Assembly (NCBI GenBank): GCA_905236265.1
Contig: CAJOOV010000050.1
Location: 1 to 34,838, forward strand
Reading direction: 5' to 3'
DNA length: 34,838 bases
Source of the DNA: an uncultured Oscillospiraceae bacterium
GTDB lineage: Bacteria; Bacillota; Clostridia; Oscillospirales; Oscillospiraceae
In this document: positions 1-12,841 of the stretch, one piece after another
Position numbering within the stretch: the stretch's first letter is position 1
Layout: the number at the start of each line of letters is the position of its first letter
Notes under the pieces: generated by a model
Seen by the model: only the letters and a program-made list of their open reading frames with translations
Told to the model about the DNA's origin: nothing
The model's database searches: none
Made by a program: the position numbers and the translations under genes

Positions 1-48
1 GTCAGCTATATGGCAGGGGGAACGACTAAGGACAGCGTACAGCCGTAA
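1..48 (+). CDS. Possible 3' end of an upstream gene (…VSYMAGGTTKDSVQP*), truncated by the window edge
   Basis: Frame 1 is open from base 1 to TAA at 46-48 and a terminator follows at 98-132. Too short to identify. Confidence 0.3.
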   Translation, partial: VSYMAGGTTKDSVQP

Positions 49-106
49 CAATAAGAATGTCCAAAGGCAGCGTACAGCCGTAACAATAAGAATGTCCAAA
101 GGCAGC
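33..106. repeat. Perfect 35-bp tandem duplication (CAGCGTACAGCCGTAACAATAAGAATGTCCAAAGG x2, plus CAGC)
   Basis: 33-67 and 68-102 are identical, and CAGC recurs at 103-106. Confidence 0.95.
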
Positions 107-132
107 AATGGTTCAGTCATTGCTGCCTTTTT
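98..132 (+). terminator. Rho-independent terminator
   Basis: Stem AAAGGCAGCAATG / CATTGCTGCCTTT with a 7-nt loop, ending in a T run. Confidence 0.8.
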
Positions 133-200: not shown

Positions 201-229
201 TAGCGCCGGAAGAGGGAACGTGGTATAAT
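201..229 (+). promoter_or_regulatory. sigmaA-type promoter with extended -10 for the chaperone/Tat operon
   Basis: TGgTATAAT at 221-229; weak -35 (TAGCGC) 17 bp upstream. Confidence 0.6.
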
Positions 230-280: not shown

Positions 281-1279
281 TTGAACGAGGTACGATGTGA
301 AAAACAATTCTCCTTACCCTCCGGAGAAAAGCTGGATGCCTCCTGCGTGATTCCCGGCTACACGGGTCTGCCTGTACAGCGTCAGGAGATCGTGCTGGGG
401 CATAACGAGGTGGAGCTGGAGCTGCAGCGCAGGTGCGTGAGCCACGGGCGCTATCTCACCACTGACCAGCCAGCCATGCGGGGAGACATGGTGAACCTTG
501 ACTTTCTCGGTTCTCTGGACGGCGAGGCATTTGACGACGGTAAGATCACCGGCTATCAGCTGAAGCTGGGGAGCAATACCTTCCTCAAGGAGTTTGAGGA
601 GCAGATCATGGGTCACAGCGCAGGGGAGTCCTTCTCCATTGACGTGACCTTCCCGGAGCAGTACCCTGCCGAGGAGCTGTGCGGGCGCACGGCACGCTTT
701 GACATCACCCTGAACGAGGTTCAGCACCTGACGGTGCCCAAACCCAGTGATGAAATCGCCAGAGAAGAGGGATTCCGTGATCTGGCAGAGATGACCAAAC
801 GGGTGGAGGAGCAGCGCACCCAGCTCCACAGGGCGAAGCAGGATGCCAGACTGCAAAAGCAGATTTTGGAGCACCTGATTCAAAACGCCCGTGCGGAGAT
901 TCCGGAGGAGCTGCTGAACCACACCGTCGGCCTGTTGCGGGAGCATTTTATGGCGGATCTCAGCAGACGGGGACAGAAGCTGGAGCGCTTCCTGCGCTGG
1001 AACAATATGACCGAGGACGCACTTCAGGCGAAGATGCGCCAGAGGGCGGTTGACCTGATTATCCGCCAGCTTGTGGTTGACACCATTGCCCGGCGGGAGC
1101 GGCTGGAGCCTACGGACAAAGAGGTAGAGCAGGCGCTGGAGCGCAGGAAAAAGACCCAGAGCCACCGCAGTGCCTATAACGACGCCCAGATGACGGCGCT
1201 GCTGAGAGAACGGATGTGCTGTGAACGGGTGGAGCGGTTTTTACTGGAGCAGAGCGAGGAGCATCCATGGGTGTCCTGA
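281..1279 (+). CDS. Trigger-factor-like chaperone (FKBP-type PPIase domain + TF C-terminal domain) without the N-terminal ribosome-binding domain; PceT/RdhT-like architecture
   Basis: FKBP-like segment GDMVNLDFLGSLDGEAFDDG…LGSNTFLKEFEEQIMG…VTFPEQYPAEEL and a helical TF C-domain; no GFRxGxxP motif. Likely TTG start at 281 after AGGAGG (about 332 aa); the ORF-track start at 92 lies in the repeat/terminator. Confidence 0.85.
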   Translation: MNEVRCEKQFSLPSGEKLDASCVIPGYTGLPVQRQEIVLGHNEVELELQRRCVSHGRYLTTDQPAMRGDMVNLDFLGSLDGEAFDDGKITGYQLKLGSNTFLKEFEEQIMGHSAGESFSIDVTFPEQYPAEELCGRTARFDITLNEVQHLTVPKPSDEIAREEGFRDLAEMTKRVEEQRTQLHRAKQDARLQKQILEHLIQNARAEIPEELLNHTVGLLREHFMADLSRRGQKLERFLRWNNMTEDALQAKMRQRAVDLIIRQLVVDTIARRERLEPTDKEVEQALERRKKTQSHRSAYNDAQMTALLRERMCCERVERFLLEQSEEHPWVS

Positions 1280-2337
1280 GCGGCATGGTTTGGAACCGCC
1301 TCACTGAGCTGCCCCATCCGGTGGTGCAGGAGCGGCGGTGTATCAACTGCTTTCGCAGACACAACTGCACGGCCTGCGCCGATGTCTGCCCGGAGCAGGT
1401 GATGCAGCCGGGGGGAAAGGTGGAGAGCTGGAGCAGCTGTACTGACTGCCAGCACTGCGTCACCGCCTGCCCCACAAGGGCAATCGGCCCCTCAGAGCAG
1501 CGCCTGCAGCGGCTGCTGACCCTGCGCACGGGTGAGGAGGAGCGGCTCTGGCTGGGCTGTGACCGCTCCGGCAGGGAGAATGACCTCTCCGTGGACTGCC
1601 TTTGCGGCATGTGCTGGGAGGAGCTGGCCTATCTCAGCTTCTTCCGCCGTCTGGTGATCGACCTTGCCCCCTGCGGCGGATGTGAAAAGACAGAGTGCCG
1701 CAGGCTGCTGGGAGAACAGCTTTGCATCCTGCGCTCCTTTCTGGGGCAGGAGCGGTTTTCCCGCCGGGTGGTTCTGGTCTACGAGGACGAAGCCGAGGCG
1801 AAGCCCCGGCAGGAGCTGAGCCGGAGAGACCTGTTCCAGCAGGGGGCGAAGCTGTCAAAAAACGGCATCGAGAGCCTGCTGAGGCAGGCACCTATGATGA
1901 ACCCGGAGGAGCTGAAGCTGGACGGGCTGTCCCTGCGCTCCCTGCTTCACCGGCAGATGGAGCGCTCAGGGGAGGTCTTTTACTGGACGGTTCCCAAGGT
2001 GAGCGGGGCGTGCAACGGCTGCGAAAGCTGCGTGAAAAGCTGCCCCACTCAGGCGCTGCGCCTGAGCGGGGACGGGAAGTGGCTGGTGCTGGATCCCGGC
2101 CATTGTACCAACTGCGGCGGCTGCAGCATTGCCTGTACAAAGCGGCGCATAACCGGAACGGAGACCGTAGGTCTTCGTAGCTTTGCCCCGGTGGCGCTGG
2201 CGGAGATACATAAAATCACCTGCCGAATCTGCGGCAGGGAGATGCGCGCCGCCACTTCAAACGGAATGTGCGGGGAGTGCCTGCGCAGGAGAATGGCGGA
2301 GGCGGCACAGCGCAACAGAAGGGAGAGAGGGGAATGA
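1267..2337 (+). CDS. Polyferredoxin / 4Fe-4S binding protein
   Basis: CTACADVCP, CTDCQHCVTACP, CNGCESCVKSCP, CTNCGGCSIAC, plus CRICG…CGEC and other Cys clusters; RBS GAGGAG; overlaps the end of the upstream gene. Confidence 0.88.
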   Translation: MGVLSGMVWNRLTELPHPVVQERRCINCFRRHNCTACADVCPEQVMQPGGKVESWSSCTDCQHCVTACPTRAIGPSEQRLQRLLTLRTGEEERLWLGCDRSGRENDLSVDCLCGMCWEELAYLSFFRRLVIDLAPCGGCEKTECRRLLGEQLCILRSFLGQERFSRRVVLVYEDEAEAKPRQELSRRDLFQQGAKLSKNGIESLLRQAPMMNPEELKLDGLSLRSLLHRQMERSGEVFYWTVPKVSGACNGCESCVKSCPTQALRLSGDGKWLVLDPGHCTNCGGCSIACTKRRITGTETVGLRSFAPVALAEIHKITCRICGREMRAATSNGMCGECLRRRMAEAAQRNRRERGE

Positions 2338-2699
2338 AACTTGGATTTGCCGAGATACTGGTGGTTCTGATTGTGGCCATGCTGGTGATCGGCCCGGACA
2401 AGCTGCCCTATTACACGAGAAATGCGGGCAAGGCGCTTCAGAGCTTCCGCAAGGCGCTGAACGAGACCACGGAAGAGGTGCGGGAGACGCTGGACGAGAC
2501 GGCGGGGGACATTATGGAGCCGGTGCAGGAGTTGAGAAACCTGCAAAAGGACGTGACGGACACGGTGAAGGATGCCTTCGACCCCTTCGCCAAGCCCACA
2601 CAAAAGCAGAAGACAGAGGAGTCTTCCCCGGCGCAGGAGACCCCGGCAGAGCCGGCGGAGGCTGCCCCGGCGGAGGCAGAGGGACAAAGGGAGAGCTGA
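2334..2699 (+). CDS. tatB: Twin-arginine translocase TatA/TatB family subunit, TatB-like
   Basis: MKLGFAEILVVLIVAMLVIGPDKLP: TM helix, GPxxLP hinge, amphipathic helix and long acidic tail. ATGA overlap with the ferredoxin stop gives the start at 2334. Confidence 0.75.
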   Translation: MKLGFAEILVVLIVAMLVIGPDKLPYYTRNAGKALQSFRKALNETTEEVRETLDETAGDIMEPVQELRNLQKDVTDTVKDAFDPFAKPTQKQKTEESSPAQETPAEPAEAAPAEAEGQRES

Positions 2700-2767
2700 C
2701 CCTCTCACGAAGGGGTGTCCGCACCGCTTTGCGAGGATGGTAAGATAAACTACAGGAGGAGATTAAA

Positions 2768-2941
2768 ATGCGTATTTCAACTATGGAGCTTCTGGTCGTA
2801 TTGGTCATTGTCATTGTCATTTTTGGGCCAAAGCAGATTCCGAAGCTGGGAAAAATGCTGGGCTCCAGCATCAAGAGCTTCAAGAAGGGCATGGAAGAGG
2901 ATATGCCCGATGAGGACGAGGAGGAGAAGAAGGAGTCATGA
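2768..2941 (+). CDS. tatA: Twin-arginine translocase TatA (57 aa, not in the ORF track)
   Basis: Translated by hand: [59 protein letters not shown] hinge and FKKG motif; RBS AGGAGG; ATGA overlap with tatC. Confidence 0.92.
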
Positions 2942-3693
2942 GCAGCGCTGCTCAGGAAAAAAAGCAAGGCGGCTCCATGCCTCTGACCGGACACCTGAAG
3001 GAGCTGAGAAACCGGCTGGTGATCTGTCTGGTGCCCTTTGTGGTGCTGACTGTCGTGTTCATTCCCATGGCAGACCGGCTGGTGACCTTACTTACGGATC
3101 TGGGCAGTGAATACGGCTATCGGTATGTCTATCTGGCACCTCAGGAGCTGATGGTGGAGTACCTGCGCATCTCCGTGCTGGGCGCTGTGATCTGCTGTAT
3201 CCCGCTGATTCTGTTTCAGGTCTGGTCCTTCACCCAGCCGGGGCTGAAGGCGTCGGAACGGCGCATGTTCGGCTTTTCCATGGTGTTTGGACTGTTCTGC
3301 TTCTGTCTGGGCATCCTGTTTGCCTACAAGATCACTGTCCCGTTTATGCTCCACTTCCTCATCGGACTGAGCAATCAGGACATCTCGGCGGCAATCAGCA
3401 TCGAGAAGTATGTCAGCTTTCTGCTCACGGTCTTTCTGATTTTCGGCATCGTCTTTGAAATGCCCCTGCTCAGCGTGGTGCTGACCAATCTGGGGCTGAT
3501 TCGTCCCGAATTTCTGAAGACCGCCCGAAAGCCTGCCATTGTGGTGATCTTCTTCATCGCAGCGGTCATCACGCCCCCGGACATCTTTTCCCAGATCATG
3601 GTGGCTGTTCCCATGATCGTGCTCTATCAGGTGAGTATCCTGCTCAGCAGTCTGTTCTACCGGAAGCGGGAGGAGCAGAAAAAAGAGGATTGA
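2938..3693 (+). CDS. tatC: Twin-arginine translocase TatC
   Basis: [34 protein letters not shown] motifs; about six TM segments. Confidence 0.97.
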
Positions 3694-3702
3694 TACTGAG
3701 AG

Positions 3703-3766
3703 AAAAAAGCACTGATACGGCATCAGTGCTTTTTTTATCCCTGCCCACCGGATGAACCGGTGGGCA
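3703..3766. terminator. Bidirectional terminator plus second hairpin between convergent operons
   Basis: AAAAAAGCACTGAT-acggc-ATCAGTGCTTTTTT (3703-3735) and TGCCCACCGG-atgaa-CCGGTGGGCA (3742-3766). Confidence 0.85.
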
Positions 3767-3779
3767 TTTGCTATTCTGT

Positions 3780-5261
3780 TTATGCCCAGGGATTTTCCGT
3801 GGGATAGGGCAGGCTTGCAGGCTGGTTGTAGGCAATATCCTTCACGCCCAGGAACTTGAATACCTCAAACAGGTACTTGCCCACATGGGAGAAGGCCACA
3901 GCGCCGTGATGGGGATAGCCCTTCTGAATCAGCACATGGCGGTAGAAGCGACCCATCTCAGGAATGGCGAACACCGCAATGCCGCCGAAGGAGCGGGTGG
4001 GTACGTCCAGAATCTGACCCTGTGCGATATAGGAGCGCAGATCGCCGTTGGAATCGCACTGGAGACGGTAGAAGGTGATGTCGCTGGCGGCAATGTCCCC
4101 CTCCAGCGTTCCACGGGTGAAGTCCGGCTCGCTTCCCTCCGGCTCCAGCAGCCGGTGCTGAATGAGCTGGTACTTGATGGCCCGATCAGAGCACATCTTG
4201 CACTCCGGCGTATTGCCGCAGTGGAAGCCCATAAAGGTGTCCGTGAGTTTGCAGTCGTACCTGCCTTTAATATCCTCGTCATAGATGTACTGGGGAACGG
4301 AGTTGTTGATGTCCAGCAGGGTGACGGTATCATAGGAGACGCACATGCCGATATACTCGCTCAGTGCGCCGTATACGTCCACCTCGCAGGAGACAGGGAT
4401 ACCCCTGCTCACCAGACGGGAGTTCACATAGCAGGGCTCAAAGCCGAACTGGCTGGGGAAGGCAGGCCAGCACTTGTCAGCGAAGGCCACATACTTCCGG
4501 CTGCCCTTGTGCTGCTCCGCCCAGTCCAGCAGCGTCAGCTCGAACTGTGCCATCTTCCGGTTCAGGTCGGAGTAGTAGCGCCCCTCGCCCATCTCGCCTA
4601 CCATATCGGCGCAGACATCGGGAATGCGGGGGTCGTTTTCATGCTCCTTGTATGCCACCAGCAGATCCAGCTCGGAGTTCTCCTCAATCTCCACGCCCAG
4701 CTCATACAGACCCTTGATGGGGGCGTTGCAGGCGAAGAAATCCTGAGGACGGGGGCCGAAGGTGATGATCTTCAGGTTCTTCACGCCGATCACTGCACGG
4801 GCGACAGGCACGAAGTCAGCGATCATTCCGGCAATGTCGTCAGCAGTGCCCACGGGGTACTCCGGGATATAGCCCTTCAGGTGGCGCATACCCAGATTGT
4901 AGGAGCAGTTGAGCATACCGCAGTAGGCGTCGCCTCTGCCGTTCATCATGTCGCCGTCGCCCTCAGCCGCCGCCACATACATCACGGGGCCGTCAAAGTG
5001 CTTTGCAATCAGCGTCTCCGGAGTCTCAGGGCCGAAGTTGCCCAGAAAGACCACCAGTGCGTTGCAGTCGGCGGCCTTGACCTCCTCCACGGCCTTGAGC
5101 ATATCCAGCTCGTTTTCCACCGTGGTGGGGCAGTTGTAGAGTGCGCCCTTGTAAGCCTTGGCGATATTCTCCCGGCGCTGGGTGGACAGTGCGATGGGGA
5201 AGCAGTCACGGCTGACGGCGATAAGCCCCAGTCTGACCTCAGGAATGTTGCTGCCTAACAT
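3780..5261 (-). CDS. L-fucose/L-arabinose isomerase family protein, probably clostridial XylA-II-type xylose isomerase
   Basis: VSRDCFP, FLGNFGPE, GDAYCGMLN, VSCEVD, FHCGN, PHHGAV motifs. Start moved to ATG 5261 after AAGGAGG. Lies downstream of xylB and DUF4867. Confidence 0.8.
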   Translation of the reverse strand: MLGSNIPEVRLGLIAVSRDCFPIALSTQRRENIAKAYKGALYNCPTTVENELDMLKAVEEVKAADCNALVVFLGNFGPETPETLIAKHFDGPVMYVAAAEGDGDMMNGRGDAYCGMLNCSYNLGMRHLKGYIPEYPVGTADDIAGMIADFVPVARAVIGVKNLKIITFGPRPQDFFACNAPIKGLYELGVEIEENSELDLLVAYKEHENDPRIPDVCADMVGEMGEGRYYSDLNRKMAQFELTLLDWAEQHKGSRKYVAFADKCWPAFPSQFGFEPCYVNSRLVSRGIPVSCEVDVYGALSEYIGMCVSYDTVTLLDINNSVPQYIYDEDIKGRYDCKLTDTFMGFHCGNTPECKMCSDRAIKYQLIQHRLLEPEGSEPDFTRGTLEGDIAASDITFYRLQCDSNGDLRSYIAQGQILDVPTRSFGGIAVFAIPEMGRFYRHVLIQKGYPHHGAVAFSHVGKYLFEVFKFLGVKDIAYNQPASLPYPTENPWA

Positions 5262-5285
5262 GATTTTGTCCTCCTTCATGATTGT

Positions 5286-5924
5286 TCAAATAGAATCAGC
5301 AATGTCAATATTTGCGCCCTTCAGACCGATGACAGCGCCCTGCTTTGCCTCATCGCTGTCGGGATGGGCGAGGAGCCACTTGTTTCGTGCGGTGAGCAGC
5401 GTGTCCTCCCGGCTGGCGGGGGTGAAGTCCGGCTTTTCCGTATTCGTCCCCCAGGGCAGCGCCACCAGCACCCGGAAGCCCTTCTCCCCGTCCGTATGAC
5501 AGGGGGCGTAGTGGAGCGTGGTGGCATAGACCTCCACCATTACCCCCGCAGGCACCCGGAAGGCGAGGACATTGGCAGTATCGAACAGCCCGTCCTCCTC
5601 GATCTGTGTCTGCTTGCCCAGCAGGAGAATAAAGTCCTCCGTGCCCAGATTGAACTCGCTGTCCCGGTGGTATTCCAGACAGTTCAGCTTTGTGTTGCGG
5701 CCATTGCACCAGCCAAGCTGGATGGGCATACCGCCAAACATCTGTTCGCTGATCTCCACCATGGAGGGCAGCTCCTGCAGGATCGGATCCTCCGGGACAT
5801 ACCCGGTGCCCCGCTCCGGCATGGGGGTCTGTCTCAGCCCCTCCAGCAGCTCGCCGGTGTCATAGCCGGTGACCACTCTTCCGTACTCTTTGAACGCTTT
5901 GTCATAAACAGAATGGACTTTCAT
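5286..5924 (-). CDS. DUF4867 family protein (XylC-like, cupin-type)
   Basis: FKEYGRV, QLGWCNG, LEYHRDSE, EVYATTLHYAPC, GTN, NKWLLAH motifs. Confidence 0.8.
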   Translation of the reverse strand: MKVHSVYDKAFKEYGRVVTGYDTGELLEGLRQTPMPERGTGYVPEDPILQELPSMVEISEQMFGGMPIQLGWCNGRNTKLNCLEYHRDSEFNLGTEDFILLLGKQTQIEEDGLFDTANVLAFRVPAGVMVEVYATTLHYAPCHTDGEKGFRVLVALPWGTNTEKPDFTPASREDTLLTARNKWLLAHPDSDEAKQGAVIGLKGANIDIADSI

Positions 5925-5936
5925 ACCTGTATCACC

Positions 5937-7412
5937 TCACACGATTTCAGGAAACAGCGCCTTCATGGCGGGATAGATTTTGCTGAACTGACGGTAGCGC
6001 TCCTCATAGCGCTCGGCCAGCTCTGCCTCCGGCTCAATGGTATCAACTACATGCACCAGACGGGCGCACACCGCCTCCACGCTGGCATCCGCTCCGTGGG
6101 CAACCATGGCCAGCATGGCGCCGCCCATGCCGGGGCCCTGCTCTGTCTCCACAATGTCCAGCTTCAGATTCAGCACGTTGGCGATGATTTTCCTCCAAAG
6201 GGGGGACTTTGCCCCGCCGCCGCAGATCTTGCTGCGGCTGATCTCAATGACCTGCGCCCTCGCCACCTCCAGAGAGTCCCGGATGGCGAAGGCCACGCCC
6301 TCCAGCATTGCCTGCGTCAGGTCGGCACGGGTGGAGTCCATGGTCATGCCCACGAAGGTTCCACGGGCGTTGGTGTCGTTGATGGGGCTGCGCTCCCCCA
6401 TGAGATAGGGGAGGAAGTAGACATGGTTTCGTCCCAGTTTGTCGTCAGTGATGGGCTGCTGCTCGGCGGCGTAGTCCTTTGTGTGGAAAATCTCCTCCAT
6501 GAGCCACTTGTTGCAGCTTGCAGCGGAGAGCATACAGCCCATGAGATGATAATGCCCGTCTGCGTGGGCGAAGGAGTGGAGGGCGTTGCAGTGATCCACG
6601 GCGAACCTGTCACTGGAGATGAAGATGGTTCCGGAGGTGCCCAGAGAGATATTGCACGCCCCGTCCCCCACGGTTCCGGTGCCCACGGCGGCGGCGGCAT
6701 TGTCCCCTGCGCCTGCGGCCACCACAGTGGAGGCGGGAATGCCCAGCCTTGCGGCCATCTCCGGGAGAACCGTGCCGATTTTCTCATAGGAGCGGAACAC
6801 GGCTGCCATCTGCTCCTCCCTCACGCCGCAGATGTCCAGCATCTCCCGGCTCCAGCGCAGGTGCTCCACATCGAAGAGCAGCATACCGGAGGCGTCGGAT
6901 ACATCCGTGGCGTGAACGCCGGTGAGCTTATAGTTGATGTAGTCCTTGGGCAGCATGATCTTGCGGATCTTTGCAAACAGCTCAGGCTCGTGCCTGCGCA
7001 TCCAGAGCAGCTTCGGGGCGGTGAAGCCGGCAAAGGCGATATTGGCGGTATACTTGCTCAGCGTCTCCCTGCCCACCACCTGATTCAGGTAGTCCACCTC
7101 TTCGGCGCACCGGCCATCATTCCAGAGAATGGCGGGGCGGATGACCTCGTCGTTCTCGTCCAGCACCACCAGTCCGTGCATCTGCCCGCCTGCGCCGATG
7201 CCCGCCACCTGAGCGGCATCAAAGCCCTGCAGCAGCTCCGGTATGCCCGTTTCCACGGCACGCAGCCAGTCCTCCGGGTTCTGCTGGCTCCAGCCGGGGC
7301 GGGGAAACTCCAGCGGGTACTCTTTGGTGACGATGCTGCAGATATGTCCATCCTGATCCATCAGCAGCAGCTTAGCCGCAGAGGTGCCCAGATCAATTCC
7401 GATGTAGAGCAT
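5937..7412 (-). CDS. xylB: Xylulokinase (FGGY family)
   Basis: IGIDLGTS, GQMHG, ILWNDGR, GAGDNAA, SLGTSG, PYLMGERSP, GGGAKS motifs. Confidence 0.92.
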   Translation of the reverse strand: MLYIGIDLGTSAAKLLLMDQDGHICSIVTKEYPLEFPRPGWSQQNPEDWLRAVETGIPELLQGFDAAQVAGIGAGGQMHGLVVLDENDEVIRPAILWNDGRCAEEVDYLNQVVGRETLSKYTANIAFAGFTAPKLLWMRRHEPELFAKIRKIMLPKDYINYKLTGVHATDVSDASGMLLFDVEHLRWSREMLDICGVREEQMAAVFRSYEKIGTVLPEMAARLGIPASTVVAAGAGDNAAAAVGTGTVGDGACNISLGTSGTIFISSDRFAVDHCNALHSFAHADGHYHLMGCMLSAASCNKWLMEEIFHTKDYAAEQQPITDDKLGRNHVYFLPYLMGERSPINDTNARGTFVGMTMDSTRADLTQAMLEGVAFAIRDSLEVARAQVIEISRSKICGGGAKSPLWRKIIANVLNLKLDIVETEQGPGMGGAMLAMVAHGADASVEAVCARLVHVVDTIEPEAELAERYEERYRQFSKIYPAMKALFPEIV

Positions 7413-7543: not shown

Positions 7544-7583
7544 ACCACTGATGTAGCCTTACAGCCGCAAAGGGGTGAGGGGA

Positions 7584-8528
7584 TTGAACGAATACGAAAT
7601 CATCCAGTACAGCCAGACCGGGGGACTCAACCTGTTTTTTGACACGGTGGACTACCGAACCTCCCATATCCACCCGGAGTGGGAGCTGCTCTGGGTCATT
7701 GACCAGCCCCTGAATGTGACCTACCGGCAGCGGGACTATTTTGCTGCGCCGGACACCATGCTCCTCATCAGCCCCAGACAGCCCCACCAGTACCGGAAAC
7801 AGGGGGAGAGCAGCACCTTTCTCTGCCTTCAGATCTCCCCGAAATGCTTTGAACTGGCCTGCCCGGAGCTGAAGAGCATGATGTCAGAGGAGCTGATTCC
7901 CGACAGGTATTGGACACAGCGGCAGCGCTTGCAGGCAAGGAGCCTTCTGATGAGCGTAGCGGAGCACTATTTCCGCCAGACGCCCTGTTACCAGCTCTTC
8001 TGCCTGTCTCAGGCGGCGATGCTGCTCTATATGACCCTGACGGCGGTGCCGTCCCAGCAGGTGGGACAGGCGGAGCTGCACGATCTGGAACGGCGCAACG
8101 CCCGGCTCATGCGCCTGCTGGCCTTTGTGGACGGGCATTACACCCAGAAGCTGCGCCTGACGGACTTTGCTGCACAGGAGCAGTGCTCGGTAAGCTATCT
8201 CTCCCGCTTTACCAGAGAGATGCTGAACCAGACCTTTCAGGAATATGTGGAGACTGTGCGTTTCCATGCCGCCTGCAAGCTGATTGCCACGGGGGAGACG
8301 AAAATGGTGGATGTCTATACCGCCTCCGGCTTCTCTGATTACCGGTATTTCTCCCGTGCGTTCCAAAAACGGACGGGGAAGACCCCGGAGGAGTACCGGA
8401 AGAGTCAGGCCGCAGAGCATGTGGAGCAGACCCACGTCCACAGAAGCATCCACTCTCTGGAGCGCTTTTACTCCAGAGAAAAGAGCGTCCAGATGCTGGA
8501 GGAGCTGAAAAACCGTTATAGGCAGTGA
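7584..8528 (+). CDS. AraC family transcriptional regulator (cupin sensor + double HTH)
   Basis: HIHPEWEL and PRQPHQY cupin motifs; SGFSDYRYFSRAFQKRTGKTPEEYR AraC signature. Likely TTG start at 7584 (GTG 7575 possible). Confidence 0.92.
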   Translation: MNEYEIIQYSQTGGLNLFFDTVDYRTSHIHPEWELLWVIDQPLNVTYRQRDYFAAPDTMLLISPRQPHQYRKQGESSTFLCLQISPKCFELACPELKSMMSEELIPDRYWTQRQRLQARSLLMSVAEHYFRQTPCYQLFCLSQAAMLLYMTLTAVPSQQVGQAELHDLERRNARLMRLLAFVDGHYTQKLRLTDFAAQEQCSVSYLSRFTREMLNQTFQEYVETVRFHAACKLIATGETKMVDVYTASGFSDYRYFSRAFQKRTGKTPEEYRKSQAAEHVEQTHVHRSIHSLERFYSREKSVQMLEELKNRYRQ

Positions 8529-8546
8529 TACAGAGGAGGGCTTGAG

Positions 8547-9539
8547 ATGGAGGAAATCAGACTGGGAACCATCGGCAGCGGCGCAATCGTCCGCTGCATT
8601 CTGAACAATGTGGTCAAAACGCAGGGCATCACGCTGGAGGCGGTGTACTCCCGCAGCGGGGAAAAGGCGGCGGCGCTGGCAGGGGAGTATGGGTGCGGAA
8701 AGACCTGCACCGATATGGACGCCTTTCTGGCAGACCCGGCGGTGAATACCGTCTATATTGCAACGCCTAACCTCCTCCACTATGAGCAGACGAAAAGGGC
8801 GCTTTTGGCGGGGAAAAACGTGATCTGCGAAAAGCCCTTTACCACAAGGCTGTGTCAGGCGCAGGAGCTGTCCCGGCTTGCCAGAGAGCGCAGGCTGTTT
8901 CTGGCGGAAGCGGCGCCCACAAGCTATCTCCCCAATTTTGCCCTTTTGCGCAGCGCACTGCCCAAAATCGGGAGGATACGGCTGGTGATGAGCAACTACA
9001 GCCAGTATTCCAGCCGGTATGACGCCGTGCTGAGAGGGGAGAAGCCTGCCATCTTTGACCCGGAGTACGCCGGCGGCTGTCTGATGGATATTAACTTCTA
9101 CAATGTGCTGCTCAATGTGCTCCTTTTCGGCAGACCCAAACGGGCGGCGTACTATGCCAACCGGTATCCCGGCCTGTCGGACACCTCCGGCACCATGGTG
9201 ATGGAGTATGACGGCTTTGTCAGCTCCAACACCGGGGCGAAGGACACTTGGGGGGTCAACTTCTTCCAGATCGAGGGAGAGCAGGGCTATCTCTACATTG
9301 AAAACGGGGCAAACGGCATCCAATCTGTGAGATGTGTGACAAAGACGGAGGACAAAACCTGCAACGCCCAGTCCAGCCCTGACCGCTGGTTCTATGAGGT
9401 GCAGGAACTGACCCGGCTGATGGGCAGCGGGGACTATGAGAGCATCTACGCCCGGCTGGACACCACGCTGGCCGTGGTAGAGGTGATGGAAAACGCCCGC
9501 AGGGCGGCGGGGATTCTCTTCCCCGGAGACGAGGGATAA
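8547..9539 (+). CDS. Gfo/Idh/MocA family oxidoreductase
   Basis: IGSGAI Rossmann motif, YIATPNLLH, CEKP, GGCLMDINFY. Confidence 0.92.
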   Translation: MEEIRLGTIGSGAIVRCILNNVVKTQGITLEAVYSRSGEKAAALAGEYGCGKTCTDMDAFLADPAVNTVYIATPNLLHYEQTKRALLAGKNVICEKPFTTRLCQAQELSRLARERRLFLAEAAPTSYLPNFALLRSALPKIGRIRLVMSNYSQYSSRYDAVLRGEKPAIFDPEYAGGCLMDINFYNVLLNVLLFGRPKRAAYYANRYPGLSDTSGTMVMEYDGFVSSNTGAKDTWGVNFFQIEGEQGYLYIENGANGIQSVRCVTKTEDKTCNAQSSPDRWFYEVQELTRLMGSGDYESIYARLDTTLAVVEVMENARRAAGILFPGDEG

Positions 9540-12223: not shown

Positions 12224-12841
12224 ATGAACCGTTATGTGACCGGAAGTGTGATACGAAAGCTGCGGGAGAGCAGAGGCATGACCCAGCAGGCACTGGCAGA
12301 GAGACTCTATGTCAGCAGCAAGGCGGTGAGCAAGTGGGAGACCGGACAGGGCTTCCCGGACATCAGCCTGCTTGAGCCGCTGGCAGGGGCGCTGGGCATC
12401 TCCGTGATTGAGCTGCTGAACGGGGAGGAGATTCAAAACCGGAACCGCTCGTCCAATCTGAAGCGGGGGAAGCTCTATGTCTGTCCGGTCTGCGGCAATG
12501 TGGTTCAGTCCATCGGAGAGGCGGTGATTAGCTGCTGCGGCATCACTCTGCCGCCTTTGGAGCCAGAGGAGGCGGAGGGGGAGCATTCCATCCACGTTGC
12601 GGTGATGGAGGATGAATACTATGTCACCGTTGACCACCCCATGGAAAAGAACCACTATATCTCCTTCCTCGCCGCCGTCTCAGACCAGAGGATACAGCTT
12701 GTGAAGCTGTATCCGGAGGGAAACGCCGAGGCCAGATTCCAGATGAACCGTGTGTCTGCCCTCTATGCCTATTGTAACCGCCACGGGCTTTTCCTTTGGA
12801 AACTGCTTCGGAAAAAGCCCTGTCCCGGCTCACAGGGATGA
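12224..12841 (+). CDS. XRE-family HTH regulator fused to a desulfoferrodoxin (superoxide reductase)-like module
   Basis: N-terminal HTH_3 (MTQQALAERL…VSKWETG…PDI), then CPVCGN…CCG and HPM…HYI…YCNRHG. Confidence 0.88.
   Translation: MNRYVTGSVIRKLRESRGMTQQALAERLYVSSKAVSKWETGQGFPDISLLEPLAGALGISVIELLNGEEIQNRNRSSNLKRGKLYVCPVCGNVVQSIGEAVISCCGITLPPLEPEEAEGEHSIHVAVMEDEYYVTVDHPMEKNHYISFLAAVSDQRIQLVKLYPEGNAEARFQMNRVSALYAYCNRHGLFLWKLLRKKPCPGSQG

Follow-up and report, generated by a model that had tools for sequence, protein, structure and literature searches.

What cargo does a twin-arginine translocation (Tat) operon export when it also encodes a shortened trigger factor and a polyferredoxin, and what do these two additional proteins contribute? 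The question is raised by a five-gene operon on contig CAJOOV010000050.1 of an uncultured Oscillospiraceae bacterium (assembly GCA_905236265.1). The window, i.e. the whole stretch of 34,838 nucleotides that was analysed, is the entire contig C50 of this assembly, which is designated G000 and comprises 1.97 Mb in 310 contigs; its completeness of 81% limits every absence reported for G000 here. The operon, hereafter the module, reads TF*–Fd–tatB–tatA–tatC, where TF* is a trigger factor paralogue without the ribosome-binding domain and Fd is a 356-residue polyferredoxin. The initial annotation had described the module as a self-contained kit that folds, loads and exports an anaerobic respiratory enzyme, namely a molybdopterin oxidoreductase, a flavocytochrome or a dehalogenase. 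We propose, with a probability of roughly 0.55, that the operon provides the only TatC translocase found in G000 and likely exports a flavoprotein encoded on contig C24, and that TF* and Fd are likely cytoplasmic Tat-maturation helpers inherited from clusters for Tat-exported molybdenum or tungsten (Mo/W) enzymes.

Organization of the operon

The open reading frame (ORF) list places the five genes and the internal motif of Fd as follows.

281..1279, + strand: TF*, 332 aa, FKBP domain and C-terminal chaperone domain (Pfam FKBP_C and Trigger_C, no Trigger_N)
1267..2337, + strand: Fd, 356 aa, two predicted 2x[4Fe-4S] domains (4Fe-4S domain matches), extra conserved cysteine sets and an internal twin-arginine (RR) motif
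1819..1836, + strand: codons 185-190 of Fd, S-R-R-D-L-F, a Tat-signal look-alike that starts helix 186-210 and has no hydrophobic h-region after it
2334..2699, + strand: TatB-like protein (long TatA/B family), 121 aa (PF02416; TIGR01410 at 55.4 bits against a cut-off of 56.5)
2768..2941, + strand: TatA, 57 aa, with its own ribosome-binding site after a hairpin-bearing spacer (TIGR01411 over cut-off)
2938..3693, + strand: TatC, 251 aa, the sole TatC found in G000 (TIGR00945 at 185.7 bits against a cut-off of 132.7)

The co-orientation of the genes and their overlap at three of the four junctions (by 13, 4 and 4 nt) stand as first annotated. The spacer between tatB and tatA is 68 nt long and contains a hairpin of -21.4 kcal/mol, and a purine-rich stretch resembling a ribosome-binding site precedes each of the five genes. 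The module is also covered by contigs from sequencing runs of three studies, one of them labelled sheep gut metagenome; no RNA data set was listed for the window. Because run contigs bridge the module junctions (terminator to TF* in X2, TF* to Fd in X1, and Fd through tatB and tatA to tatC in X4), the gene order does not stem from misassembly.

The translocase and its likely cargo

The window holds all Tat genes of G000 that were found, one for TatC and two for TatA/B proteins. TatC residues E22, R24, R26, F98, E107, E174 and D215 are invariant among 23 aligned TatC sequences. Because TIGR01410 falls about 1 bit under its cut-off, the gene at 2334-2699 may encode either TatB or a long TatA. 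The genome thus combines a TatC with the signal-binding residues, subunits of the TatA family and a twin-arginine substrate, as a Tat translocase demands.

What is this substrate? A motif scan and TIGR01409 (24.4 bits against a cut-off of 16.7) identified one clear Tat-signal protein in G000, the 678-residue flavoprotein encoded at C24:9735-11768. The protein carries FMN_bind and FAD_binding_2 domains, a lipobox-like cysteine and a flavinylation-like motif, which is T-S-A-T in G000, most congeners read having S-G-A-T instead. Its gene is followed by rnfC, a fused rnfD-G, rnfE, rnfA and rnfB, and an ApbE gene lies on contig C26. An export signal, an FMN_bind domain with a flavinylation motif, an FAD_binding_2 domain and ApbE, the marks of a flavinylated extracytosolic flavin reductase, are therefore all present. 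The flavoprotein lies under the cut-off of every NCBIfam model that it matched, and it aligns only over part of its length with flavocytochrome c fumarate reductase from the PDB. The genome scan for a Tat-signal redox enzyme that had been suggested thus yielded one, and it corresponds to the flavin-reductase option.

The same partnership recurs in the genus, in which 43 genomes were surveyed (42 of them for Fd, G066 being left out). TatC is present in 25 genomes, and flavoprotein matches were obtained in 27, including all 25 TatC genomes. The matches in two of the 18 genomes without TatC are a C-terminal fragment (G021) and a weak match of 34% (G031). Two relatives in the genus, G012 and G017 (98% complete), also carry the module. 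Of the 22 TatC genomes without a window-type module, 21 have tatC directly before at least one flavoprotein copy, and the contig of the remaining one, G062, breaks off behind tatC. At the flavoprotein locus of the two module-bearing relatives, tatB and tatA (G017) or just tatA (G012) persist and tatC is missing, so that the only tatC is that of the module. The tatC of the cassette is therefore likely to have replaced an ancestral flavoprotein-adjacent tatC. The replacement is displayed by G012 and G017 only, because the interval between apbE and the flavoprotein gene is unassembled in G000; no contig from four runs bridges the tatBA–flavoprotein junction of G017. In phylogenetic analysis, the module TatCs form their own clade (support 97/99), apart from 21 flavoprotein-adjacent and nine Faecalibacterium-type TatCs. 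They share 46-54% identity with the flavoprotein-adjacent TatCs, and the flavoproteins are 69-77% identical.

The locus conserved across the genus reads apbE / NusG_II / (HepS) – tatBAC – twin-arginine flavoprotein (a single copy or several in tandem) – rnfC, fused rnfD-G, E, A, B. It corresponds to G000:C24 4729-11768 (L035) and G000:C26 1780-3247 (L415), with L066-L085, L292 and L293 in congeners (L-numbers label the loci read), and is a candidate Rnf-fed extracellular reductase system. G021, which is 100% complete and TatC-negative, retains only a 131-residue C-terminal flavoprotein remnant before rnfC (L294 5856-6248), which fits a joint loss of Tat and cargo. A second exported flavoprotein of the flavocytochrome c family is encoded at G000:C178 3920-6100 (L036), divergently from a NusG_II gene; it has several FMN_bind domains and a non-RR N-terminus and exceeds the NF005064 and TIGR01813 cut-offs.

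The other clients named in the initial annotation, a molybdopterin oxidoreductase or a reductive dehalogenase, did not appear. G000 has no PF00384, MoeA or AFOR (WOR) match and no RdhA over the TIGR02486 cut-off. G017 likewise has no match to PF00384, MoeA or AFOR, and the only PF00384 protein of G012 has no RR signal. WOR was found in none of the three genomes, and no RdhA gene lies near the module in G012 or G017.

TF* is a trigger factor paralogue without the ribosome-binding domain

The description of the first gene as a trigger factor paralogue that lacks the ribosome-binding domain was borne out. Trigger_N was missing from TF* in all scans, even when the search was extended over the entire open frame starting at base 2, and the GFRxGK ribosome-binding motif of the housekeeping Tig is not present. 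The TF* alignment covers only residues 112-425 of the full-length Tig of G000, which is encoded in tig-clpP-clpX on contig C290. TF* nevertheless passes the cut-off of the trigger factor model TIGR00115 despite the missing N-domain; therefore, annotation pipelines will mislabel it as Tig. The AlphaFold2 (AF2) model of TF* (pLDDT 92.7) has trigger factors as its top Foldseek matches. TF* and the Fd-paired TF* proteins of Faecalibacterium form one clade (92/93), separate from full-length Tig and from other short paralogues, in a tree with moderate support and long branches, from which 17 of 47 rows were dropped in the careful run.

TF* occurs in two of the 43 genus genomes, and G017 carries the module without it. 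At least eight further clusters each of TF* and Fd have module-type sequence. Searches of plasmids recovered trigger factors at 21-37% identity only and no Fd.

An FKBP-domain phenylalanine (F105 in TF*) shared without exception by window-type TF* and full-length Tig is replaced in the two Faecalibacterium-type TF* proteins compared, from the g167 TF* loci L269-L278 and L290; data from Escherichia coli indicate that replacing this residue would lower isomerase activity. Faecalibacterium-type genomes encode four to five Trigger_C proteins each, one of which is a full-length paralogue without GFRxGK (L344, L346, L349-L351).

Known trigger factor relatives offer a model for TF*. PceT lacks the ribosome-binding domain. 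It binds the Tat signal of PceA, according to excerpts of PMC8905343, and RdhT is a trigger factor homologue, according to part of PMC3306737. TF* shares with PceT and RdhT (pceABCT and cprTKZEBACD of Desulfitobacterium and Dehalobacter) the homology to trigger factor, the absence of the ribosome-binding domain and the tie to Tat. In contrast to them, TF* is encoded with tat genes and a ferredoxin rather than with a substrate, and G000 has no over-cut-off RdhA. TF* thus resembles PceT by description and is a putative PceT-like chaperone. In the window and in Faecalibacterium, TF* also takes the place of the PF02613 chaperones TorD/DmsD, the usual neighbours of Fd, whereas its fold is unrelated to theirs and the module has neither TorD nor a Mo enzyme.

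Fd belongs to an Fe-S family with a conserved internal twin-arginine motif

What is the function of the polyferredoxin? Its most conspicuous feature is the internal RR motif, which is nearly as conserved as its cysteines. Among 113 full-length representatives, R186 is kept in 107 and R187 in 104, compared with 103-112 for the cysteines. S or T precedes the arginines in 100 of the 113 and F or L occupies position 190 in 99, giving the consensus S/T-R-R-E/D-x-F. The AF2 model of Fd has a pLDDT of 92.0 and a pTM of 0.87, with low confidence at the far end of helix 186-210. Of 31 aligned copies, 27 carry RR and one has KR, and the three others form one non-Tat clade. A strict dependence of RR retention on a Tat neighbourhood was rejected, since the motif is lost in that three-locus clade and kept at five other loci without Tat neighbours.

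A profile search defines the family as 163 clusters at 50% identity (E<=1e-30). Its members are named in their sources only as '4Fe-4S binding protein' or 'ferredoxin', and no NCBIfam model covers them: among 99 members (E<=1e-12), 25 families are listed, the commonest being a generic ferredoxin model in 26. Foldseek with the Fd model returned nothing at E<=0.001, and the best VIA match (Z 7.6) extends over single ferredoxin domains, so that the fold is shown to be neither new nor known. A PDB sequence search matched ferredoxin stretches alone. A single-protein scan of genome contigs gave no matches; an alignment-based scan retrieved mostly a distant Collinsella family, with no Tat neighbours in the three loci read, and nearly all matches of a metagenome scan were generic ferredoxins. 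The complex prediction for TatC and Fd scored 0.01 twice against a mark of 0.32, with the controls not folded, and speaks neither for nor against an interaction. Full-text listings, which include few subscription papers, contain no TF*–Fd pair, no internal twin-arginine ferredoxin family and no use of Tat in Faecalibacterium beyond WorS, although the supplements of PMC8238504 and PMC13328260 may list such loci. The accessible portion of PMC5506873, on a C. pasteurianum hydrogenase, mentions neither Tat nor Fd. Fd thus represents an unnamed Tat-linked Fe-S family and is the more novel part of the module.

In the genus, full-length Fd is restricted to three of 42 genomes. These are the three module genomes, in which it is complete, with cysteines and RR, at 49-57% identity. 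It is under purifying selection, with dN/dS values of 0.23-0.39 between the module genomes (dS being large) and eight of nine listed strain differences synonymous. Partial Fd matches in G019, G028 and G036 were discarded as orthologues because the genes resemble glycyl-radical activases by their neighbours and N-termini.

Among characterized proteins, NapF has an N-terminal RR-like motif and is about half as long as Fd. Parts of PMC10609526 describe it as a cytoplasmic 4x[4Fe-4S] maturation protein of the Tat-exported NapA that is dispensable in some organisms. Many Fd family members, like NapF, would be cytoplasmic polyferredoxins encoded beside a Tat-exported Mo enzyme, whereas the window copy has no Mo enzyme. 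Fd further differs from NapF in its central non-ferredoxin domain and the internal position of its RR motif; the NapF model TIGR00402 gives 24.9 bits against a cut-off of 102.2 and is not among the 25 families listed for the 99 members. ArxB2 of the arsenite-oxidase clusters arxB2ABCD is a predicted ferredoxin whose gene lies beside those for a Mo enzyme, a membrane protein subunit and a TorD-like protein, and the part of PMC6549141 that was available calls arxB2 arx-specific. This layout is that of many Fd loci, and ArxB2 may be a named relative of Fd, judged by description, whereas the Fd family is broad in the phylum.

Linkage of TF* and Fd to Tat beyond the genus

The distribution of Fd follows that of TatC outside the genus as well. 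In a draw of 401 genomes from the order, seven have a TatC over the cut-off and four have Fd; all four are TatC-positive, and two belong to genus g167, which is taken as Faecalibacterium because the Fd of named records falls in the same clade. In a draw of 400 genomes from the phylum, Fd is present in 74 and TatC in 222, and 73 of the 74 Fd genomes have TatC (26 families, whose kin are not independent, which inflates the p-value). The rarity of Tat that had been supposed thus holds for the order and fails in the genus, where Tat is common.

The g167 genomes contain Fd in 76 of 81 cases and TatC in 78 of 81, and each in 35 of 35 high-quality genomes. Of 15 Faecalibacterium-type genomes read, 14 have TF* immediately before Fd, with one copy truncated; TF* is absent in G503 and in the named record L117. 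The TF*–Fd pair is therefore near-core in Faecalibacterium. Three closed g167 genomes have no PF00384. A contig titled Collinsella (L115) has the Faecalibacterium-type gene order with near-identical TF* and Fd and is probably mis-binned.

Twenty Fd loci of the phylum draw, taken from the stronger matches, were read, and 12 adjoin a Tat-type Mo/W enzyme, TorD or tat genes. The Fd of G106 and the second Fd copy of G491 are located in Mo-enzyme/TorD clusters. In the Fd tree, the module proteins, those of Faecalibacterium and the Mo-operon copy of G491 group together (100/97), with the Mo-operon copy of G106 as their sister (94/81). G600 has a Trigger_C-only gene, Fd, an RR-signal WorS gene and a WorL gene in a row, and this Trigger_C gene is apparently independent. 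Class V WORs are reported for Faecalibacterium in excerpts of PMC13328260. With these systems (WorSL, YdhV-like; gut Clostridia), the Fd loci share a Tat-signal WorS and WorL, which follow Trigger_C-Fd in G600, lie by tatAC in G106 and occur in two closed Faecalibacterium-type genomes (PMC13328260, in part), whereas WorSL was not found in G000, G012 or G017. The class V-type loci with an RR-signal WorS lie at L420 9529-12349 (G469) and L421 6112-8931 (G483), and WorL of G469 consists of two overlapping ORFs.

The predicted association of the chaperone and the ferredoxin with Tat in other genomes is thus supported by the co-occurrence of Fd with TatC and by the Faecalibacterium pair. Conserved synteny of all five genes is only partly observed: the module recurs in G012 and G017, but TF* is missing in G017 and tatBAC lies elsewhere in Faecalibacterium.

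Proposed function and alternative explanations

How would the module operate? The flavoprotein would fold and bind FAD in the cytoplasm while TF* holds its signal peptide, by analogy with PceT for PceA and with TorD in Mo operons. Recognition of the RR signal would then fall to TatBC, and passage of the folded enzyme to TatA. Outside the cell, the flavoprotein may stay lipid-anchored, undergo flavinylation by ApbE and pass electrons supplied by Rnf to an acceptor. Such enzymes have precedents: parts of PMC8238504 describe flavinylated fumarate-reductase-like enzymes as extracytosolic respiratory reductases. The C24 protein shares FMN_bind and FAD_binding_2 domains, an export signal and a genomic ApbE with Listeria FrdA, Shewanella UrdA and the gut 'respiratory-like reductases' (PMC8238504 and bioRxiv 10.1101/2022.12.26.521950, both in part); in contrast to these, it is a twin-arginine lipoprotein, by its lipobox-like cysteine, and heads an rnf operon. 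We infer respiration in this organism. Fd may act at the chaperone or translocase step through its internal RR motif, as a cytoplasmic maturation factor like NapF. Historically, a TF*–Fd–tatB–tatA–tatC cassette would have landed behind the LacI gene of a fructan cluster, and the older tatC before the flavoprotein gene would then have been lost.

Several observations weigh against this proposal. TF* and Fd are not in the tat–flavoprotein loci of the 21 congeners described above. Because both are absent from most congeners and G017 lacks TF*, neither is needed for flavoprotein export; the two proteins are accessory, not essential, for this cargo, and the module cannot be called self-contained. 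The flavoprotein has no Fe-S clusters and thus no obvious use for a polyferredoxin. A better metallo-client exists in the two closed g167 genomes tested, both of which have a Tat-signal WorS with WorL and molybdenum cofactor genes; this WOR was not found in G000, G012 and G017. Faecalibacterium tatBAC is located away from the TF*–Fd pair, and eight of the 20 phylum Fd loci have no Tat or Mo neighbour within 6.5 kb. Between G000 and G017, Fd evolves faster (dN/dS 0.39) than TatC (0.15) and the flavoprotein (0.07). The sister grouping of TF* appears moderately supported, at only 92/93 on long branches, and the base of the TatC tree, from which the split tatC of G061 was excluded, is unresolved. 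Finally, the unassembled stretch between apbE (C26) and the flavoprotein gene (C24) of G000 may hold a second tatC.

Many of these points can be turned into a different explanation, in which only tatB, tatA and tatC matter, and TF* and Fd are leftovers of a cassette that once served to mature a Tat-exported Mo/W enzyme of the DMSO-reductase or class V WOR type, the genes for the enzyme itself having disappeared or not having arrived with it. Neither G000 nor the nearly complete G017 yielded a molybdopterin enzyme, MoeA or WOR, which agrees with it, as do the missing TF* of G017, the position of the nearest Fd relatives in Mo operons and the elevated dN/dS of Fd relative to TatC between G000 and G017. 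Against it, Fd remains full-length, with cysteines and RR kept in all three module genomes, at dN/dS values well below 1 and with mostly synonymous strain differences, and further module-type clusters of each gene exist. We regard this explanation as unlikely, yet as deserving real weight, because most congeners do without the helpers, G017 has no TF*, and no Fe-S or pterin cargo was seen. Less probable still is a role of TF* and Fd in the general quality control of Tat cargo, with twin-arginine lipoproteins of non-redox type, chiefly those that bind solutes, as the clients. A fructan ABC cluster with an RR-signal binding protein precedes the module in G012 and G017, the gene after Fd in Faecalibacterium often encodes an RR-signal family-5 binding protein, and TIGR01409 matches at E<=1 number 38 and 39 in the two closed genomes, with a lipobox in 16 of 19 read (one misread). 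Against this, the G000 assembly yielded no RR-signal binding protein, a terminator parts the sugar cluster from the module, the genus-wide link of tatC is to the flavoprotein, and the Fe-S protein is left unexplained.

The client assumed in the initial annotation, a molybdoenzyme or reductive dehalogenase, might instead reside in the unassembled fifth of the fragmented G000 genome. The Fd family is usually encoded beside Mo/W enzymes, and PceT accompanies RdhA (PMC8905343, in excerpt). Nevertheless, we consider such a hidden client very improbable in view of the LacI gene upstream of base 1 and the negative searches for PF00384, MoeA, AFOR and over-cut-off RdhA in G000, which are repeated for the first three in G017 and joined by the RR-less PF00384 protein of G012. 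The proposal that the module exports the C24 flavoprotein, assisted by inherited helpers, can also be carried further, albeit speculatively. Fd might be the prototype of a hitherto unrecognised, phylum-wide Tat accessory, a cytoplasmic Fe-S protein whose RR pseudo-signal engages the translocase or a signal-peptide chaperone and makes the export of folded cargo depend on the metal or redox state; TF* would stand in for TorD, and the pair, in an operon with tatBAC, would serve an Rnf-fed extracellular flavin reductase of a fermentative gut clostridium. We hold this extension to be doubtful at present.

Flanking features and the remainder of the window

The boundaries of the module are marked by the following features.

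1..48, + strand: 3' end and stop codon of a LacI-family regulator gene of a GH32-AraC-LacI sugar cluster, outside the operon, with the remainder of the gene on contig C90
33..102, + strand: 35-bp tandem duplication over the LacI stop codon, a strain-specific or assembly feature
98..132, + strand: intrinsic-terminator-like hairpin (stem of -20.4 kcal/mol, then a T run) that ends the LacI gene and parts it from the module
221..229, + strand: candidate extended -10 box TG-n-TATAAT, read by eye, with a poor -35 and absent from the consensus-scan list
3703..3736, no strand assigned: bidirectional terminator-like hairpin 3' of tatC, with a second hairpin at 3742-3766

The operon thus has its own putative terminator, as annotated; its own promoter is supported only in part, by the extended -10 box. 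The expectation of a substrate just upstream of base 1 is ruled out: window positions 1-71 are identical to G000:C90 3813-3883, the 3' end of the LacI gene of the GH32 cluster. The same LacI gene directly precedes the module in G012 and G017.

The duplication at 33..102 is single-copy in run X1, where the joint skips 35, and on C90, and a loose end in X4 suggests the same. The LacI end and terminator are present on two contigs with differing continuations (window 33-102; C90 3813-3907), which may reflect a strain mixture, loss of the module in part of the population or misassembly. C90 continues past the LacI end into a multi-copy repeat with approximately 30 genomic matches; therefore, the assembly forks at the LacI end. 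The repeat is an intergenic element of approximately 180 bp, located at C90 3911-4090 (L414) and at approximately 30 further places, e.g. C24 4488-4668, often at contig ends. Most copies are 88-97% identical, and the element is possibly a miniature inverted-repeat transposable element or a structured RNA.

Downstream of the module, window positions 3780-7412 (- strand) and 7575-9539 (+ strand) encode a pentose-type catabolism with a fucose-isomerase-like protein, DUF4867, an FGGY kinase, a divergent AraC regulator and a Gfo/Idh/MocA oxidoreductase. An XRE-type helix-turn-helix regulator with a weak desulfoferrodoxin-like match at its C-terminus is encoded at 12224-12841. Housekeeping genes make up the remainder of the window (polA, tsaD, trpS-like, murB, rapZ, whiA and dnaE).

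Biological significance

Tat and its cargo are ordinary in kind here, and the module consists of known parts in a new arrangement. What is new is an Fe-S family with a near-invariant internal twin-arginine motif that tracks TatC across Bacillota. The operon gives a direct gene link of TF*–Fd to tatBAC, which the scattered arrangement in Faecalibacterium, a major gut genus, had hidden. Moreover, 25 of the 43 genus genomes pair Tat with a twin-arginine flavin reductase heading rnf, which points to a disposal of electrons outside the cell by bacteria that are usually deemed purely fermentative.

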